Virus record (IMG/VR): IMGVR_UViG_3300012665_000204
Span: 1 to 38,227 of that record
Direction: 5' to 3' (one strand)
Source: a virus
Taxonomy: Duplodnaviria > Caudoviricetes
Length of the DNA: 38,227 nt
Part shown: piece by piece, positions 2,261-27,875 of the stretch
Layout of the letters: every line of letters starts with the position of its first letter
Position numbering within the stretch: the first letter of the stretch is position 1
Made by a program: the position numbers and the translations under genes
The notes under the pieces: generated by a model
The model's database searches: none
Told to the model about the DNA's origin: nothing
Seen by the model: the letters and a program-made list of their open reading frames with translations, nothing else

Positions 2261-2643
2261 TTTGTTCCCTTTACTAAAAGTAGTACATCGATTTGGTGTT
2301 GTAAATCTTTAATCTTTTGAATCAAATCTAAGAAGTGTTCAGCGTCTACTAATGCTAAAGGCTTGCTAAGGTTTTGTTTCAATATCACTAAAGGCTCTGT
2401 TACTCCATGGGTTTTTGCTTGTTCGTAGTCTTTGTACACTGCGATTGCTTTTCTGTTTTTGCATTCAACTGTGTAATTAAATAACGACCTAGCCAGAGGA
2501 CTGAGTTGTACATCCTCTCCACTCGCTCCCATGCTCGTTGACCGGACATCATCTTGGTGCAACGTCGGAAAACGTTGGAGTATCTGATCCCTGCACCACT
2601 GCTGAAGCTTTCTTCCTTTTGCCTTTGCGGACTGTGGCTTCAA
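2257..2643 (-). CDS. PD-(D/E)XK nuclease, putative Holliday junction resolvase
   Basis: KAKGRKLQQW, GEDV, VECKN motifs; TTG start with AAGGA SD. Confidence 0.75.
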   Translation of the reverse strand: MKPQSAKAKGRKLQQWCRDQILQRFPTLHQDDVRSTSMGASGEDVQLSPLARSLFNYTVECKNRKAIAVYKDYEQAKTHGVTEPLVILKQNLSKPLALVDAEHFLDLIQKIKDLQHQIDVLLLVKGTK

Positions 2644-2863
2644 GTTTAACTTCCTTTCGTTTGGTAATCATTCTTTTAGGGATAGTGATACTGTTATTAC
2701 ACATTCCGTCTGTTATTGTTCCTGCTAGTTCAATCTGCTCTTCATTTTCAAAGACAACAAATCCAACTGTCTTACATCTTAAATCTTCATGCTTTGCTTC
2801 ATGCCACTCGCCTTGTGCTAAAGCGTCCAGCCACTCAACTAAGACAAGCTTGGCGGTGTCCAG
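2549..2863 (-). CDS. Hypothetical protein (start uncertain, possibly CTG)
   Basis: Globular-looking segment KLVLVEWLDA...CKTVGFVV...ITIPKRMI; overlaps both neighbours. Confidence 0.6.
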   Translation of the reverse strand: MDTAKLVLVEWLDALAQGEWHEAKHEDLRCKTVGFVVFENEEQIELAGTITDGMCNNSITIPKRMITKRKEVKLEATVRKGKRKKASAVVQGSDTPTFSDVAPR

Positions 2864-3519
2864 AGTTGATCGTGGCTTCTTTGGAGCCACAATAGCTGCC
2901 CGTTCTCCAAGACTCGCTCCTCGTTTCCTTGGTAGGCTTCTAGGACAGCAAGATACATCTCGTGTTCTGTTTGGCATTCTTCAAGTATCCTTTTTGCTTT
3001 GACGGGACCAATCCCTTTAATACCAATGATGTTATCAATTCGATCTCCAGTTAGCATTTGAATATAAAAACTATGTAGACCTTCAAACTCTGTTACGTGA
3101 TACTTTTCTTTTTTGCGATAGTTGTAATGCCAGCCACGAAGTTGATTAAGGTCTTTATCGATGTGTACCATAATCATTTCATCTTCAGGGATAGCGTAAC
3201 AAGCTATTGCAACTGCATCGTCAGCTTCTATATCCTTAGTCATCATGAAGCCGTACTTGACCTGTAGGTGCTCCCGTAAGGCTTGATAGTGAGCAGGTTT
3301 AGGAGCTACACGAGTTCCTTTGTAAGGAGCAGTCTTTGCTATGTCGTTACGGAAGTTTCCTTTACCCGTTAACCAACCAAAGTAACAGTCTGCCCCTACA
3401 TCAGAAAGAATCGTATCGACAGCTTCATTCATTCTCCATTTAGCTAACGGCTCTTCAATACCTTCACTGGAGAAGCCGATAGCGTACACTAGAGAATCAG
3501 CGTCGATTAAAGCTCGCAT
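2839..3519 (-). CDS. 5'-3' exonuclease (T7 gp6/FEN-like)
   Basis: LIDADS, YKGTR, EADD, DKDL, GDRIDNIIGIKGIG motifs. Confidence 0.92.
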   Translation of the reverse strand: MRALIDADSLVYAIGFSSEGIEEPLAKWRMNEAVDTILSDVGADCYFGWLTGKGNFRNDIAKTAPYKGTRVAPKPAHYQALREHLQVKYGFMMTKDIEADDAVAIACYAIPEDEMIMVHIDKDLNQLRGWHYNYRKKEKYHVTEFEGLHSFYIQMLTGDRIDNIIGIKGIGPVKAKRILEECQTEHEMYLAVLEAYQGNEERVLENGQLLWLQRSHDQLWTPPSLS

Positions 3520-4179: not shown

Positions 4180-4340
4180 GGTGCTAAATGTGATTCTTTA
4201 ATTGCTTGTAAATAGTCACTTGCGTTTCCTAATTGTTCAAGCTCTTCTGTTAATAAAATAGAAATGTTGTGGATACTTTGTCCTCTTCTGAATAACTCAA
4301 GAACAACATTGTGTACTAAATCTAATTCTCCATCACCCAT
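4176..4340 (-). CDS. Small hypothetical protein
   Basis: TGATG coupling to the polymerase stop; MGDGELDLVHNVV... Confidence 0.65.
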   Translation of the reverse strand: MGDGELDLVHNVVLELFRRGQSIHNISILLTEELEQLGNASDYLQAIKESHLAP

Positions 4341-5989
4341 CAGTGTGTTTCCTTCCAATTGTTACCAACTTTATATTCACCTGTTAGAGGACATCTCATC
4401 TCCAACACCTGCCCTGCTTCTTCTATTGCCTTTACTCCAAACTTTCCTACCTGCTCTGCGTATACTTCTGGTACTTCTAACTGCCACTCATCATGCACGT
4501 TAGCCACGAACTTATAAGGTATCTTAGAGACCTTTAATTTACGATCTAATAGCACCAGTGCTTGCTTCATAACGATCGCACCAGCCCCTTGCAATAACGT
4601 GTTAAGCGACGAGTGCTCGGAACGAACGAGTATTTGCCTTCCGTCAATACCTTGTACCCGTCCTTTTTGAGAGTAGATACGAGCCACTTTCTCTCTAAGT
4701 TCTTTAAGTTTCGGTGTGTTTCGTAAAAAATTATCAATGAGTTGTTGTCCTTCTTTCGCAGAGCCTCCAACAATTGTCCCGATTTTGGTACTTCCGGCAC
4801 CATAGAGGAATGCATATATAAACGTCTTAGCTTGGTTCCTCGTTTGTAGCCCAGCAGCGGTTTGGTTCGCTGTGTGTATGTCGCCTGAAACAACTTCATG
4901 TGTATATACATTGTCATTCATATAGTGAGCCAGCATACGAAGTTCTAATCCTGAAGCATCGATACCAACTAACTTATTGCCTTTCTCAACAGTCCAAAGT
5001 TCTCTACAGTCCATTCCGTAAGGGCTGCCACTGTTAGGTACTTGTGCCATGTTAGGTGACATATGTGTCATCCTGCCTGTAATAGCACCACAAGTGATAA
5101 CCCTTCCATGAATACGACCATCCGACTTCATAGCGTCTAACCAAGATTCAATCTGTGCTATACGCTTTTGAAGCATCATGTACTCTGCGATGGCTTTCGC
5201 TTCGGGGTAGTCGAGCGTTTCGAGGACGGCTTCGTCGACGATGACGCTACCTTTTTCTGTGTGCTTCTTGGGCTTCCAGCCTTTTTCGATGAGTCTTTCG
5301 GCGATTTGCTTACGGCTGCCGGGGTTGAACGGGGTGATGATGTCTTTGAGCGGTTTACCGTTTTTGCTGACTCTACCGGACTCGACTCTGTCTGGAAATA
5401 TGCTTGACATTTCAATTTGAATAGCGTCCAGCTTAGTTTTAAGTAGAGATAATAATTGTAAAGATTTTGCTTCATCAATTTTAAACCCGTGTTCTTCTTG
5501 CTTCGTGATGATCGCTTGTACATTGTGCTCAAGATCTATACTCCTTTGTGAGAAATTCTCTAGTTCTAAAGTAGCTACTAGACGATAAAATAACTTGCTA
5601 GTAACCAACGTATCCTGAATGCAATACTCTTCCATTTCAGGTGTTGCTCCATTGTCCCAGTCGCTAAAGTTTCCCTTAGCGTATCCGAGACGATTACCCC
5701 ATGCTTCAAGACTATGACCGTCCTCTAGGCTTGGGTTTAGAAGTCGGCTTGCTACGAGCGTATCGTACACTTGGCTCAACTTCATCGTGACGTTCCAGTT
5801 CTTCCTCAGTACTGGTGCATCGAAGTTTATTCCGTTGTGCATGATAATCAAATCGCAAACTTCCAAATACTTTTGTAATCCACTTGCTGCTTTCCATACC
5901 TTAACCTCATCTGTTTCAATGTCACGAGTAACACACATCCAAATCTTATCGTGTGTACTATTGGTTTCGATGTCTAAAACTATTTTCAT
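4340..5989 (-). CDS. polA: Family A DNA polymerase with 3'-5' exonuclease (T7-like, Tyr762 type)
   Basis: DIET, HNGINFD, YCIQD exonuclease motifs; DASGLELR (motif A), KTFIYAFLYG (B), VHDE (C). Confidence 0.97.
   Translation of the reverse strand: MKIVLDIETNSTHDKIWMCVTRDIETDEVKVWKAASGLQKYLEVCDLIIMHNGINFDAPVLRKNWNVTMKLSQVYDTLVASRLLNPSLEDGHSLEAWGNRLGYAKGNFSDWDNGATPEMEEYCIQDTLVTSKLFYRLVATLELENFSQRSIDLEHNVQAIITKQEEHGFKIDEAKSLQLLSLLKTKLDAIQIEMSSIFPDRVESGRVSKNGKPLKDIITPFNPGSRKQIAERLIEKGWKPKKHTEKGSVIVDEAVLETLDYPEAKAIAEYMMLQKRIAQIESWLDAMKSDGRIHGRVITCGAITGRMTHMSPNMAQVPNSGSPYGMDCRELWTVEKGNKLVGIDASGLELRMLAHYMNDNVYTHEVVSGDIHTANQTAAGLQTRNQAKTFIYAFLYGAGSTKIGTIVGGSAKEGQQLIDNFLRNTPKLKELREKVARIYSQKGRVQGIDGRQILVRSEHSSLNTLLQGAGAIVMKQALVLLDRKLKVSKIPYKFVANVHDEWQLEVPEVYAEQVGKFGVKAIEEAGQVLEMRCPLTGEYKVGNNWKETH
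5176..5475 (-). CDS. Putative overprinted Ser/Lys/Thr/Pro-rich basic protein (+1 frame of the polymerase)
   Basis: Open frame coincides with an abrupt loss of T at polymerase third codon positions; see findings. Confidence 0.6.
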   Translation of the reverse strand: MKQNLYNYYLYLKLSWTLFKLKCQAYFQTESSPVESAKTVNRSKTSSPRSTPAAVSKSPKDSSKKAGSPRSTQKKVASSSTKPSSKRSTTPKRKPSQST

Positions 5990-6183
5990 AATCTAATTAT
6001 ACCATAAAAATACATTAGCACTGCTACGAACTCGACCATGAATAAAGCATAGTCTTTTTGTTTTAGTCCAGCAATAGTCCACAGTCCACTTCCGATTAAA
6101 CCAAACCAAAGATTTAAAGGAAAGATGTTTAGACTTGTGAGAGCAATTCCAACAAGGCATAGGACTGTGCCTGTCCACTTCAT
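5986..6183 (-). CDS. Small 2-3 TM membrane protein
   Basis: Hydrophobic segments throughout; ATGA coupling on both sides. Confidence 0.8.
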   Translation of the reverse strand: MKWTGTVLCLVGIALTSLNIFPLNLWFGLIGSGLWTIAGLKQKDYALFMVEFVAVLMYFYGIIRL

Positions 6184-6482
6184 CGGTTACTGTATCCTCT
6201 ACGTGTACCATCGTTGCTATAATAGTTCGTAGTGCCTTGATTTGATTCAGTTTTATAACCACTGCGACGACCTTGATCATCGTAAACTGCGTTCTTAGCT
6301 GCAGGATTTAATGAGCTATTGTTGTAGTTATACGGACTATTTTTGTAGTTATACTGTGAGTTCTCATAGTTGTACGGACTGTTCTTATAGTTATAAGGAC
6401 TATTGTCGTACGAAGTCTGAGCACTACATAGTGTAGCTACAAATAATAAACTACTTGCCGTTACAATTTTGATTTTGTTCAT
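6180..6482 (-). CDS. Secreted protein with NS(P/Q)YNYx heptad repeats
   Basis: GGAG SD at ATG 6482, signal peptide ending LCSA, four tandem repeats. Confidence 0.8.
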   Translation of the reverse strand: MNKIKIVTASSLLFVATLCSAQTSYDNSPYNYKNSPYNYENSQYNYKNSPYNYNNSSLNPAAKNAVYDDQGRRSGYKTESNQGTTNYYSNDGTRRGYSNR

Positions 6483-6621
6483 TTTCAACTCCATTAAATT
6501 CAAACATATTAGAATAATTTCTTAACTGTTGTATTGCTTCTTGAATCAGTGCATTCTCTTTTGAAGCATACGGATTGCCGTAACGTTGATCTAGTGCTTC
6601 GATTAATTCATTTGTTGTCAT
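6451..6621 (-). CDS. Small hypothetical protein
   Basis: Hand translation MTTNELIEALDQRYGNPY...; AGGAG SD and ATGA overlap. Confidence 0.6.
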   Translation of the reverse strand: MTTNELIEALDQRYGNPYASKENALIQEAIQQLRNYSNMFEFNGVENEQNQNCNGK

Positions 6622-7585: not shown

Positions 7586-9165
7586 AATACATCCTTGATC
7601 TCTAGCATACGACCGGTATCACGATTGTAGAGCAAGCTTGCACAATGCGGTGACGTAAGACCTGCAAAGCGATTCTTTAGGATTGATACCTTAGTGGTAT
7701 TACGCTCCATAGGGTCTTCTGCTTGTGCATTGCGAACCAGTCCGATAACAATGTCAGATAGCTGAGCAATTGATCCAGAGCCACGAAGTTGTGACAAGGA
7801 TGTCGCAGCTCCTTCTTCGTGTCCTTTTGATTCTGGACGCTTCAGGTGCGATACTGCGATCAAGCAAATGCCAGTCTCCTGTACCAGCATACGAAGCTTA
7901 GTCATCAGCTCATCAATCGACTTACGCTCATCACCATTTGACTGAGCACTGACAACCATACTAATGTGATCAAGAAATACATACTTGCAGTCCGATGCCT
8001 TAGCGAAGTAACGAATGCGATTAATGACGTTATCAATGTCAGTAGAACCAAAGTTATCCCAAAAGAATAAACGATCAGTAGCCAAAGTGTTGTCGAATGC
8101 ATCTTTCAATTCCTCCTGAGAGACCTGAGTACTAGGTAAGTGTAGTGGCTTATTAGCGTACAGTGACATAATAGATTTAGCAGTCTTACTGACTGACTCC
8201 TCCATAAACATACAGCCTATACGTCCGTCCGTGGTCTTAAGCAGGTGCCAAAGAATTTCTCGAAGGAATTGTGATTTGCCAAGACCTGATCCAGCAGTGA
8301 CTGTGATGAGTTCAGCAGGTCTAATTCCATAAGTGAGTTCGTTAACACCGTCCCATGGGTATAAGGCAAGCGACTGCTCGACTGGCTTCGTAACTTCGTC
8401 CCATAATGATGATCCGGCAATGATCCCGTCTGGAGTCCATTGTTCGGCATTCCACCATAAGTTAACATACTCTGCACTCTTACCACCTTTGAGATAGTCG
8501 CAAGCATCTTTGTACCCTGTTAAGTGTTTAATGATTTTACATTTAGAACCAAACAATTCTGCTACTTCGTTAACTGCTTTTGTACCGGCTTCGTCACTGT
8601 CAAACGACAAGTAGATTGTCTCGAAGCTATCAAGCCATTCATACTGTGCTTTACAGTCCTTTAGAGCAGCACTAGCACCGTTTTTAACAGAGACATGGGG
8701 ATACTTACTACCAGCCATCTGAAACCCTGCCAGAGCGTCTAATTCGCCTTCGTGGATAGTGACGTTACGACCACCCTTAGCAAACTTATTCTGTCCAAAT
8801 AACGTAGTGGCTTTCCAGTCACCTTGAATAGAAAATTGCTTGTCTGCTACGGTGCGAACCTTAAGACCGGCAATGGCATTGTCACTATCAAAGTAAGGAT
8901 AGTAATGCTTTGAGTCGTCTTGACGTACTCCATAGGCTAACGCAGTATTGTAAGTAATGCCACGATCACTGATAGCACCGCTAGTAAGATTGTCATAATT
9001 AGTAAAATTCCGCATAGGTTTAGTTTTCTGAGTTGATTCGACACCATCACCATCAATGTAATTAAAGCAAACATGACAGTATTCGTGATTGTCCGTATAG
9101 ATGGAATTACCATCACTAGATCCACACTTGGTGCATGGAATGTGTTTTATAAAGTGGCTAGTCAT
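7582..9165 (-). CDS. Primase-helicase (T7 gp4-like)
   Basis: N-terminal Cys4 Zn finger, TOPRIM EGELD/FDSD, Walker A AGSGLGKS, FLDH, LRGSGSIAQLSD, KNR. Confidence 0.96.
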   Translation of the reverse strand: MTSHFIKHIPCTKCGSSDGNSIYTDNHEYCHVCFNYIDGDGVESTQKTKPMRNFTNYDNLTSGAISDRGITYNTALAYGVRQDDSKHYYPYFDSDNAIAGLKVRTVADKQFSIQGDWKATTLFGQNKFAKGGRNVTIHEGELDALAGFQMAGSKYPHVSVKNGASAALKDCKAQYEWLDSFETIYLSFDSDEAGTKAVNEVAELFGSKCKIIKHLTGYKDACDYLKGGKSAEYVNLWWNAEQWTPDGIIAGSSLWDEVTKPVEQSLALYPWDGVNELTYGIRPAELITVTAGSGLGKSQFLREILWHLLKTTDGRIGCMFMEESVSKTAKSIMSLYANKPLHLPSTQVSQEELKDAFDNTLATDRLFFWDNFGSTDIDNVINRIRYFAKASDCKYVFLDHISMVVSAQSNGDERKSIDELMTKLRMLVQETGICLIAVSHLKRPESKGHEEGAATSLSQLRGSGSIAQLSDIVIGLVRNAQAEDPMERNTTKVSILKNRFAGLTSPHCASLLYNRDTGRMLEIKDVL

Positions 9166-20320: not shown

Positions 20321-20488
20321 ATGGCATTATTTAAATGCAACCAAACAGGCAATACTGTTGAGTTTGATCTCGAGCACGATATTGCTGCAATGCGTTCACA
20401 CCCAGACTATGAAGAGGTCCTCGAAGAGGTTAAACCTGTTGTAGAAACTAAAGAAAAGAAAACTGTAGCTAAATCTAAGGCTGAATAA
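20321..20488 (+). CDS. Small hypothetical protein (55 aa)
   Basis: Hand translation MALFKCNQTGNTVEF...; GGAG SD, TAATG coupling. Confidence 0.8.
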   Translation: MALFKCNQTGNTVEFDLEHDIAAMRSHPDYEEVLEEVKPVVETKEKKTVAKSKAE

Positions 20489-21474
20489 TGAGCATCTATC
20501 GTGGTGCAGGTGGAGCAGGTGATGCTACAGCAGACTCTTCTAGCGAAGCGTTATTAATTCGTGATCTAGCTGAAGAAGTACAAGCTGACGCAGACGCTGC
20601 TGCTACTTCGGCTAGTGCTGCTTCAGGTTCTGCTACATCCGCAGCAAGTTCTGCTAGTGCTGCATCTACATCAGCAACTAACGCTAGTAACTCTGCGTCT
20701 TCAGCAAGTACTTCAGCTACTAACGCATCTAATTCTGCGACCACAGCAAGTACTCAAGCATCTAACGCAAGCACTTCAGCAACTGCTGCTGCAGCTTCTG
20801 CAACCAGTGCTTCAAACTCTGCTACTACAGCAACTACACAGGCTACTAATGCTTCCACTTCCGCATCTGGAGCAAGCACTTCAGCAACTAACGCATCCAA
20901 CTCAGCCACTACAGCAAGCACTCAAGCAACAAACGCTGCAAGCAGTGCATCAAGTGCTTCCACATCTGCTACAAACGCAGCAACATCATCTACTTCCGCA
21001 TCAGGAAGCGCTACTTCAGCAACTTCTTCAGCCTCTAGTGCCTCTACTTCTGCAACTAATGCAGCGTCCAGCGCTACAAGTGCAACAGGATCAGCAAGCA
21101 CAGCAACAACTCAAGCAGGTATAGCAACAACACAGGCTTCCAATGCCTCTAGTTCGGCTTCTGCTGCGTCTACGTCAGCTAGTAATGCTAGTACCTCAGC
21201 TACTAACGCTGCAGCCTCTGCGACCTCTGCAAGTGGCTCTGCGTCGACTGCTACTACACAGGCATCTAATGCCAGTACTTCAGCTAGTAATGCTTCTACT
21301 TCGGCAACTAACGCTGCCAATTCAGCAACACTTGCAGCATCATATACACCAAGTCAAACTGGTAACGCAGGTAAGTTTTTAACAACTAATGGTACTTCAA
21401 CTTCATGGGGTACTGTTACAGTCGATGCAGACCCTGCTGGTACTGCTGTAGCTCTCGCAATCGCACTAGGATAA
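20488..21474 (+). CDS. Ala/Ser/Thr-rich fibre stalk protein
   Basis: ~14-aa repeats (ASTSATNASNSATT); C-terminal GKFLTTNG...AIALG. Confidence 0.8.
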   Translation: MSIYRGAGGAGDATADSSSEALLIRDLAEEVQADADAAATSASAASGSATSAASSASAASTSATNASNSASSASTSATNASNSATTASTQASNASTSATAAAASATSASNSATTATTQATNASTSASGASTSATNASNSATTASTQATNAASSASSASTSATNAATSSTSASGSATSATSSASSASTSATNAASSATSATGSASTATTQAGIATTQASNASSSASAASTSASNASTSATNAAASATSASGSASTATTQASNASTSASNASTSATNAANSATLAASYTPSQTGNAGKFLTTNGTSTSWGTVTVDADPAGTAVALAIALG

Positions 21475-27046: not shown

Positions 27047-27460
27047 ATGTTTCCATTAGATGCTTTACTAAACATTGGCGGTAAGATATTAGATAAGGTC
27101 TTTCCAGACCCTGCACAAGCAGAACAAGCTAAACTTAAACTATTAGAGATGCAACAGAATGGTGAGTTAGCTCAGATTAATGCTGACATGGCAGAGCAAC
27201 ACGAACTCACGGCTAGACTACAAGCTGACATGGTTAGCGATAGCTGGTTGTCTAAGAACATTCGTCCTATGACACTAATCGCTATTCTTGCTGGTTACTT
27301 TATATTTGCTGGCTTATCTGCTGCTAAGATAGATGTTACAGGCGAATATGTCCAGTTACTAGGTCAATGGGGTATGTTGATTATGTCCTTCTATTTCGGC
27401 GGACGTACTCTGGAGAAGATAATGGATATGAGAGCTAAGGACAAAGATGCAAATAAGTGA
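27047..27460 (+). CDS. Holin (GTA 3TM-like)
   Basis: ILDKVFPDP...SWLSKNIRP...FYFGGRTLEK; adjacent to the endolysin. Confidence 0.8.
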   Translation: MFPLDALLNIGGKILDKVFPDPAQAEQAKLKLLEMQQNGELAQINADMAEQHELTARLQADMVSDSWLSKNIRPMTLIAILAGYFIFAGLSAAKIDVTGEYVQLLGQWGMLIMSFYFGGRTLEKIMDMRAKDKDANK

Positions 27461-27875
27461 ACACTTTAGTTTAGAAGAGTTAACTCATACTGATCATCGT
27501 CAGTTTGACAATACTCCTAATGAACAAGAACGTGAGAATCTAGGTCGTTTAGCTACTCTGTTAGAAAGAGTCAAAGAAGTACTAGGTGGTAAACCTATTA
27601 TGATTAACTCTGCTTTCAGATCTAAAGCTGTGAATGATGCCGTAGGCTCTAAAGATACTAGTCAGCATCGTCTAGGATGTGCTGCTGACATTAGAGTCCC
27701 CGGAATGACTCCAGATGAGGTTGTACGGGCTATTATGGCTTCGGACATAGGGTACGATCAGATCATCAGAGAATTCAATGCATGGACTCATATAAGCGTT
27801 CCTAATAGCTTTACTATACCACCAAGAAATCAAGCTTTGATTATTGATAAGACAGGCACAAGAAAGTTTAGCTAA
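27447..27875 (+). CDS. Endolysin, peptidase M15A-like
   Basis: HFSLEEL, INSAFRS, SQH.LG.AAD, WTHIS. Confidence 0.9.
   Translation: MQISEHFSLEELTHTDHRQFDNTPNEQERENLGRLATLLERVKEVLGGKPIMINSAFRSKAVNDAVGSKDTSQHRLGCAADIRVPGMTPDEVVRAIMASDIGYDQIIREFNAWTHISVPNSFTIPPRNQALIIDKTGTRKFS

Follow-up and report, generated by a model that had tools for sequence, protein, structure and literature searches.

A T-poor stretch in the polymerase gene

Why do codons ending in T nearly vanish from one stretch of a phage DNA polymerase gene, and does that stretch carry a second protein in another reading frame? The gene (positions 4340 to 5989, minus strand) lies in IMG/VR record IMGVR_UViG_3300012665_000204, of which the whole stretch of 38,227 nucleotides was analyzed (here called the window), and it encodes a 549-aa T7-type family A polymerase (Pfam DNA_pol_A; phrog_17). 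This 38-kb tailed-phage genome also encodes terminase, portal, capsid, primase-helicase, holin, and endolysin; the lysis genes (holin, phrog_3427; endolysin, phrog_894; positions 27047 to 27875) are separate from the polymerase gene. A promoter and terminator scan returned 2 and 2 sites, respectively, against 4.3 and 1.5 in shuffles. Sequencing runs richest in the polymerase gene are mainly freshwater metagenomes, and the bins that hold members of the polymerase clade described below disagree (L161, Burkholderiaceae; L162, Terrimicrobiaceae). Elsewhere in the window, a small gene without a PHROG match between helicase and polymerase (6180 to 6503, minus strand) has a signal-peptide-like start and NSPYNY repeats; a 142-aa ORF (2549 to 2977, minus strand) overlaps, in another frame, the 3' 139 bases of an exonuclease gene (2839 to 3519); and a 169-aa alternative-frame ORF (20615 to 21124, plus strand), also without a PHROG match, lies within an Ala/Ser-rich gene (20488 to 21474), of whose low-complexity codons it may be a product.

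In polymerase codons 199 to 270 (positions 5180 to 5395), the third base is T in 4, C in 38, A in 19, and G in 11 cases (n = 72), against T in 141, C in 77, A in 154, and G in 105 of the remaining 477 codons, which bears out the hand count of an earlier, sequence-only reading of this DNA. Among 7,381 stretches of 72 codons from 38 ORFs, this one has the strongest C skew, with C/(C+T) at 0.90 and the next-best gene at 0.56, and in 5,000 synonymous shuffles the minimum T count over any 72-codon stretch never fell below 6. The +1 frame is free of stops for 119 codons here, a run that appeared in 0 of 3,000 synonymous shuffles. The skew ends at the +1-frame TGA (5176 to 5178), as that reading had said, and among relatives it ends at each lineage's own stop: of the codons from 260 to 270 that end in a pyrimidine, T closes 65 of 86 where the stop is at codon 256 or 259 (14 sequences), and 15 of 200 where it is at codon 271 (36 sequences). 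The boundary moves with the stop codon of the lineage, and the skew therefore tracks a protein and not a place.

GC content is 0.525 in positions 5201 to 5400 and 0.41 in the window as a whole, which would suit an explanation without any protein, in which the skew would come from a patch of recombinant high-GC DNA, from RNA structure, or from a signal in the DNA. The first of these can be excluded: G at third positions falls within the skewed stretch (0.18 versus 0.22), Leu codons are CTC (106) or CTT (31) and almost never CTG (1), and the neighboring core of the same frame is T-rich; Lys, Glu, and Gln codons also favor A. Both counter-possibilities raised by the sequence-only reading were thus looked at: the patch is not high-GC DNA, and the relatives that share the skew have no +1 stops. 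No consensus RNA fold was found over codons 140 to 272 in 33 sequences, core and tail of the frame included, weak folds (about -2.7) being confined to the region of ORF2 (see below), and the antisense frames hold no conserved open stretch save one of 42 codons in a frame with 12 stops. With the pattern clade-wide and its boundary shifting with the stop, we consider an origin without a protein highly improbable.

Extent and start signal of ORF1

The open frame, here called ORF1 (5176 to 5532, minus strand), lies in the +1 frame and would encode 118 aa from a TTG start, 19 codons more than the frame noted earlier, which had been started at ATG 5475. The Shine-Dalgarno sequence AAGGAG (5541 to 5546, minus strand) stands 8 nt ahead of TTG 5532 and scores -8.2 kcal/mol against an anti-Shine-Dalgarno sequence, a value beaten by only 2 of the 33 ordinary window genes scored. 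We rejected ATG 5475 as the start; it has no Shine-Dalgarno match (-3.7 kcal/mol), and only 52 of 65 relatives have an ATG at this position (polymerase codon 172). TTG 5532 is probably the start, judging from these signals, although TTG is a weak start codon.

Across the clade, 65 of the 70 full-coverage members combine a Shine-Dalgarno sequence with a start codon, using one of three sites that differ by lineage (TTG at codon 153 in 30, ATG at codon 143 in 22, and ATG at codon 155 in 13), so the frame has the translation start signal of its own that marks an overprinted gene. The background rate of such a combination is 239 of 11,796 control codons (2% per codon). The sites mostly track subclades, with the exception of L092; one relative, L136, has an open frame but ACG at the codon 155 start site, which counts against the gene. 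A programmed frameshift out of the polymerase frame, which would fuse the exonuclease domain to ORF1 sequence, is suggested by a database singleton from one contig (P0011) that runs from polymerase into ORF1 sequence. This is most simply a sequencing error, there is no common slippery run by eye in codons 138 to 180, and start signals in 65 of 70 members with compensating moves among the three sites speak against it; we regard a frameshift as extremely improbable. An assembled contig of a relative from an RNA run spans ORF1 (5064 to 6030, 77 differences) and is mute on strand, level, and translation.

Conservation of ORF1 among relatives

Three scans yielded 211 loci; removal of 1 locus with internal stops and 6 identical copies led to a set of 205 polymerase sequences, the window included. 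The clade was defined as the rows at 63% identity or more (n = 74, the fragmentary L124, L169, L173, L182, and L188 excluded), and as 4 of the 74 are cut at the 5' side, 70 members have full coverage. The +1 frame is open for more than 100 codons in 66 of these 70, which span 61 to 100% nucleotide identity; it is not open to that length in L029, L103, L106, and L107, and ORF1 is therefore dispensable in some lineages. Among relatives at 49 to 61% identity, L164 alone has an open frame of more than 100 codons at this position.

We counted optional +1 stops, i.e., those that one synonymous third-base change would create, in codons 156 to 255. In the 65 carriers 0 of 1,032 are used, a pooled count over related and thus nonindependent sequences that were picked for openness, yet make up 65 of the 70; the proportion used is 45 to 58% in three control stretches and 232 of 415 in the same region of 23 relatives without the frame. 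Thinning to a single sequence from each of 18 clusters (80% nucleotide level) left 0 of 282 (31 positions) against 433 of 876. Selection has thus kept the alternative frame open across relatives, and this stop avoidance, together with T avoidance tied to each stop, agrees with the proposed gene, overprinted in the +1 frame and with a tail kept hydrophilic by selection.

Synonymous sites of the polymerase gene are constrained over the ORF1 core. In three distance classes, divergence at fourfold sites is 0.03, 0.08, and 0.30 over the core and 0.12 to 0.22, 0.35 to 0.42, and 0.54 to 0.60 over the flanks, whereas this stretch ranks with the fastest (0.30, 0.50, and 0.66) in the 23 relatives that lack the frame; the collapse is seen in ORF1 carriers only. 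Fourfold sites under the tail are not slowed and diverge like the flanks. Since the frame is kept open in most relatives and has its own ribosome-binding site, ORF1 very likely encodes an unannotated small protein; comparative evidence of this kind makes us highly confident that it is a real protein-coding gene, with translation predicted.

A constrained hydrophobic core and a hydrophilic tail

The predicted product has three parts: a basic, Ser/Lys-rich leader (residues 1 to 19; 5476 to 5532, minus strand), a hydrophobic, aromatic, acid-free core of 27 residues predicted to form a helix (residues 20 to 46; 5395 to 5475, minus strand), and an S/K/T/P-rich tail that is predicted to be disordered, carries a net charge of +14, and is the source of the T-poor skew (residues 47 to 118; 5179 to 5394, minus strand). 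Where the polymerase codon leaves either class available, the hydrophobic option is chosen at 0.29 in the leader (187 of 654, codons 156 to 171), 0.75 in the core (846 of 1,122), and 0.19 in the tail (475 of 2,497), compared with 0.49 to 0.61 in controls. Four polymerase codons nearly always end in T although the polymerase residue varies (codon 176 in 65 of 65 sequences, codon 185 in 64, codon 189 in 65, and codon 192 in 62), and L, V, I, or F is therefore fixed in the +1 peptide. The core is 22% aromatic and 1% acidic, with a net charge of +3 to +6. By these measures, it is the hydrophobic core, and not the tail, that is the sequence-constrained part of the putative protein.

The tail had been described as histone H1-like, a label that the analysis did not support. 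The C-terminal tail of histone H1 is dominated by Lys and Ala and lies behind a winged-helix domain; the ORF1 tail resembles it in being basic, Pro-containing, and disordered with occasional S/TPxK words, but is dominated by Ser (S 23%, K 18%, P 9%, A 6%) and has no winged-helix domain. No linker-histone globular domain is seen in the model, which is one helix and coil, and no histone family is among the Pfam matches of 65 ORF1 members at E 0.1. Across 65 relatives the tail has 57 to 74 residues and a net charge of +9 to +18, and its end varies from codon 256 to 271. S, T, and P are doubled (0.38 versus 0.18 expected) while K+R stands at the expectation from the polymerase frame (0.24 observed and 0.23 expected, in a test blind to changes that reshaped the polymerase residues themselves), so the tail appears to be selected as hydrophilic and not as basic; its charge may be a by-product. 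The alignment of the polymerase with T7 gp5 picks up again at residue 220 (T7 333), just past the T7 thioredoxin-binding insert, and the insert is short here; the overlap with the position of that insert, which the sequence-only reading had given for the frame as such, holds for the start of the tail.

AlphaFold models ORF1 as one helix (residues 3 to 49, pLDDT 94 at residues 21 to 40) and coil, with a pTM of 0.30. The core's averaged hydrophobic periodicity peaks at 160 degrees (0.46) and not at the helical 100 degrees (0.18), a peak that is partly forced by Lys, Glu, and Gln codons of the polymerase; it speaks against the simple amphipathic helix that the AlphaFold model suggests. By Kyte-Doolittle hydropathy, no canonical transmembrane segment is present in the 65 sequences, the best 19-residue means being 0.12 to 1.42 (median, 0.79), under the usual transmembrane level. 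Family scans with ORF1 returned nothing in Pfam above the cut-off, PHROGs, or NCBIfam, and no usable match in the ESM Atlas.

Origin of ORF1

Profile searches gave 6 matches among 5.8 billion proteins (word-indexed, 56 to 224 residues) and 10 among 1.84 billion representatives. By sequence, each of them is either this nested frame or a singleton that includes it; no free-standing homologue and no match outside such overlaps was found among them. ORF1 has a narrower distribution than its host gene, being present in one clade and a sister lineage. In a tree of 83 representatives built from 295 columns outside ORF1 and ORF2 (the ORF3 region was kept; support is SH-aLRT), the ORF1 carriers form a clade (95) with a group lacking ORF1 as its sister (83.5), and the next branch holds L052, L113, and L116 (and L128 by sequence). 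These four sequences have the core codon signature in a shorter frame that ends at codon 206 or 236, and they have no S/K tail. The simplest inference from this distribution is that ORF1 arose de novo, the core first, with loss in one group, and that the main clade gained the tail later; there may also have been two separate origins. The clade would thus display steps of gene birth that are seldom visible together, namely, a core in a sister lineage, a variable tail, three start-site moves, and probable losses. A distant lineage (L059, L056, L071, and relatives, at about 52 to 57% identity) has a different R/K/S-rich +1 frame of 62 aa over the thumb, at codons 188 to 250, with an ATG and a Shine-Dalgarno sequence; in two members it is only 35 aa long.

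Other nested frames

Two further frames in the same polymerase gene are likely hidden genes by similar signals. ORF2 (4567 to 4911, minus strand) is a +1 frame that covers the fingers and motif B and would encode 114 aa from ATG 4911 (116 from 4917). It is open in all 74 clade members, each with an ATG at codon 358 to 360; the T needed for the ATG at codon 360 is used in all 67 cases in which it is possible, against 741 of 1,155 elsewhere, and 0 of 590 optional stops are used. No Shine-Dalgarno sequence precedes it in the clade of 74, which counts against ORF2. Among relatives at 50 to 63% identity the frame is open in 51 of 85, all 51 with ATG at codon 364 and 48 with a Shine-Dalgarno sequence, and it is closed in one clade at 55 to 61% identity. 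An unannotated open counterpart lies over motif B in the Pelagibacter phages HTVC103P (L212:589-2277, 99 codons) and HTVC115P (L213:589-2295, 113 codons). The ORF2 model is a small alpha/beta domain (pLDDT 68, pTM 0.58) for which Foldseek returned nothing from PDB or BFVD at E 0.001 and the best VIA-align Z was 4.5, an outcome that marks the fold as neither new nor known; family scans found nothing in PHROGs or NCBIfam, and ESM Atlas scores were at most 0.84.

ORF3 (5712 to 5897, minus strand), in the +2 frame over the exonuclease domain, would encode 61 aa from an ATG with a Shine-Dalgarno sequence. It starts at codon 30 or 31 and reaches at least 55 aa in 48 of 66 clade members, with a Shine-Dalgarno sequence in 44 of the 48, and is absent from 17 members whose ORF1 starts at the codon 143 ATG and from L016. 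ORF3 would explain a second T-poor patch, at polymerase codons 49 to 78; its family scan found nothing in NCBIfam. Together, ORF1, ORF2, and ORF3 cover 296 of the 549 polymerase codons (54%), and as gains and losses of the three frames do not coincide, they are not an obligate set.

In the primase-helicase gene, a 65-aa +1 frame (7905 to 8102, minus strand) with a strong Shine-Dalgarno sequence (-10.3) is open in 24 of 133 homologous matches, and the open matches listed are ORF1-clade phages; judged by sequence, it is likely another nested gene. A 96-aa +1 frame in the same gene (8217 to 8507, minus strand), with a weak Shine-Dalgarno sequence, is open in 12 of 121 matches. T7 gene 5 (L217:354-2468) has unannotated +1 stop-free stretches of 116, 72, and 68 codons, the longest of which (codons 258 to 373) runs across the thioredoxin-binding insert without a good Shine-Dalgarno sequence. 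The CRP-403 and HTVC019P polymerases have no +1 stretch of 60 codons, and the long +1 frames of GC-rich polymerases (LUZ100 and several prophages) may be explained by base composition.

Possible function of ORF1

Taken as a whole, the reading we favor is tentative and falls a little short of an even chance: ORF1 would be a selected +1 gene with its own ribosome-binding site, encoding an accessory protein of 118 residues whose core docks on the inner face of the host membrane. Granted that the gene is real, a role at the membrane surface is about evenly balanced against the other possibilities. Ribosomes would start at the internal Shine-Dalgarno sequence on the polymerase mRNA, and the protein would therefore be made along with the replication genes and act on the host cell during replication. 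Too polar to span the inner membrane, the core would lie along its cytoplasmic surface, probably at a host envelope protein, while the disordered hydrophilic tail would keep the protein soluble and may bind nucleic acid nonspecifically. Hydropathy below the transmembrane level and a periodicity of 160 degrees weigh against membrane docking, and a hydrophobic core suits a protein partner equally well.

That partner could be a soluble host protein, with the core as a docking motif (an inhibitor of an enzyme, a regulator, or a defense system) and the tail serving solubility. The low hydropathy would fit, as would the fact that L/V/I, S, and W are each fixed at particular positions of the core, and small host-inhibiting genes of T7 adjoin gene 5 (e.g., gp5.5, which acts against H-NS). 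On the other hand, hydrophobic residues are taken almost wherever the polymerase allows, and the interchange of L, F, Y, W, and C in an acid-free segment would be more typical of a surface that faces lipid than of a specific interface; we hold a soluble partner to be rather unlikely, if a serious contender.

The sequence-only reading had the basic tail condensing DNA or tethering replicating phage DNA to the membrane, which now seems quite unlikely. The charge and length of the tail and the position of the gene inside a polymerase gene are in keeping with it, and [ST]Px[KR] motifs number 38 against 22.3 expected in 65 related sequences. Even so, this is less than one motif per sequence, K+R is not above expectation, fourfold sites under the tail evolve like the flanks, and the tail varies in its end and is missing from the sister lineage. 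Phage phi29 offers a precedent: its small proteins p1 and p16.7 have been put forward as membrane anchors of replication, and p16.7, itself integral to the membrane, binds terminal protein and ssDNA (PMC4974454). They illustrate a possible way of working for ORF1, but their genes are free-standing, and none of our searches matched ORF1 to them.

An accessory role for the polymerase itself, in which the core binds the enzyme and the tail grips DNA as a thioredoxin substitute for processivity, would suit a polymerase without the long T7 insert and two products made from one mRNA. Close relatives with a short insert have no ORF1 (the L029 group and the clade at 55 to 61% identity), so the polymerase works without it, and this role is very unlikely; a complex model of the polymerase with ORF1 residues 12 to 55 scored 0.00 and gives no answer either way.

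Comparison with known nested genes

By its sequence, ORF1 shows the testable marks of overprinted (de novo nested) viral accessory genes. An embedded o-spanin of the Rz1 type has a lipoprotein signal with a lipobox Cys and is nested in Rz in the lysis cassette; we rejected this identity, as ORF1 is nested in the polymerase gene and has a Cys at codon 194 in only 28 of 65 sequences. Nested genes in phage polymerases have already been published; a literature search mostly of papers outside subscription, main texts only, returned no report of them in these family A polymerases.

The leviviral sgl genes arose de novo inside the replicase gene, in the +1 frame and with their own Shine-Dalgarno sequence (Chamakura et al. 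2020, PMC7693330); rep holds 21 of the 33 active genes, and they lie mostly over less conserved regions (PMC7693330). ORF1 likewise lies wholly within a polymerase gene, in the +1 frame, with its own Shine-Dalgarno sequence. Sgls, in contrast, are the lysis function of ssRNA phages and were selected for a predicted transmembrane segment (PMC7693330), whereas ORF1 belongs to a dsDNA phage with a separate holin and endolysin and has a long disordered tail. We rejected a lysis protein of the Sgl type, as ORF1 has no transmembrane segment predicted by hydropathy and would not be the sole lysis function.

In mycobacteriophage Patience, a 372-bp out-of-frame ORF inside gene 91 (DnaE) was detected by mass spectrometry (Pope et al. 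2014, PMC4324244); it is kept in Barnyard but not in Konstantine, and a possible expression artifact was left open (PMC4324244). ORF1 is also an out-of-frame ORF inside a phage DNA polymerase gene, but of family A instead of family C, with selection visible over 65 relatives, three nested frames, and knowledge from sequence alone. PB1-F2 in an influenza polymerase gene is an overprinted viral accessory protein (Sabath et al. 2012, PMC3494269), and astrovirus XP is overprinted, membrane-associated, and found by a comparative signal (PMC7426862) of the kind seen for ORF1. ORF1 would resemble both as a de novo, mostly disordered accessory protein; they come from eukaryotic RNA viruses, and we claim no sequence relation.

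Implications

PolA, a standard marker gene for aquatic phages, carries the annotation of a single protein. In this lineage more than half of it would be dual-coded, so neutrality would not hold at its synonymous sites, and up to three proteins per genome would escape standard annotation. The open ORF2 counterpart in the cultured phages HTVC103P and HTVC115P makes direct detection possible now. Read jointly, and we think this unlikely in its entirety, the family A polA genes of abundant aquatic phages may be nurseries of new genes, with 54% of an essential polymerase overwritten by three de novo proteins in this lineage: one would run across catalytic motif B, be old, and be common to cultured SAR11 phages, and ORF1 would be a newly born membrane anchor, a hydrophobic core with a later disordered, DNA-gripping tail, that holds the replication machinery at the membrane.
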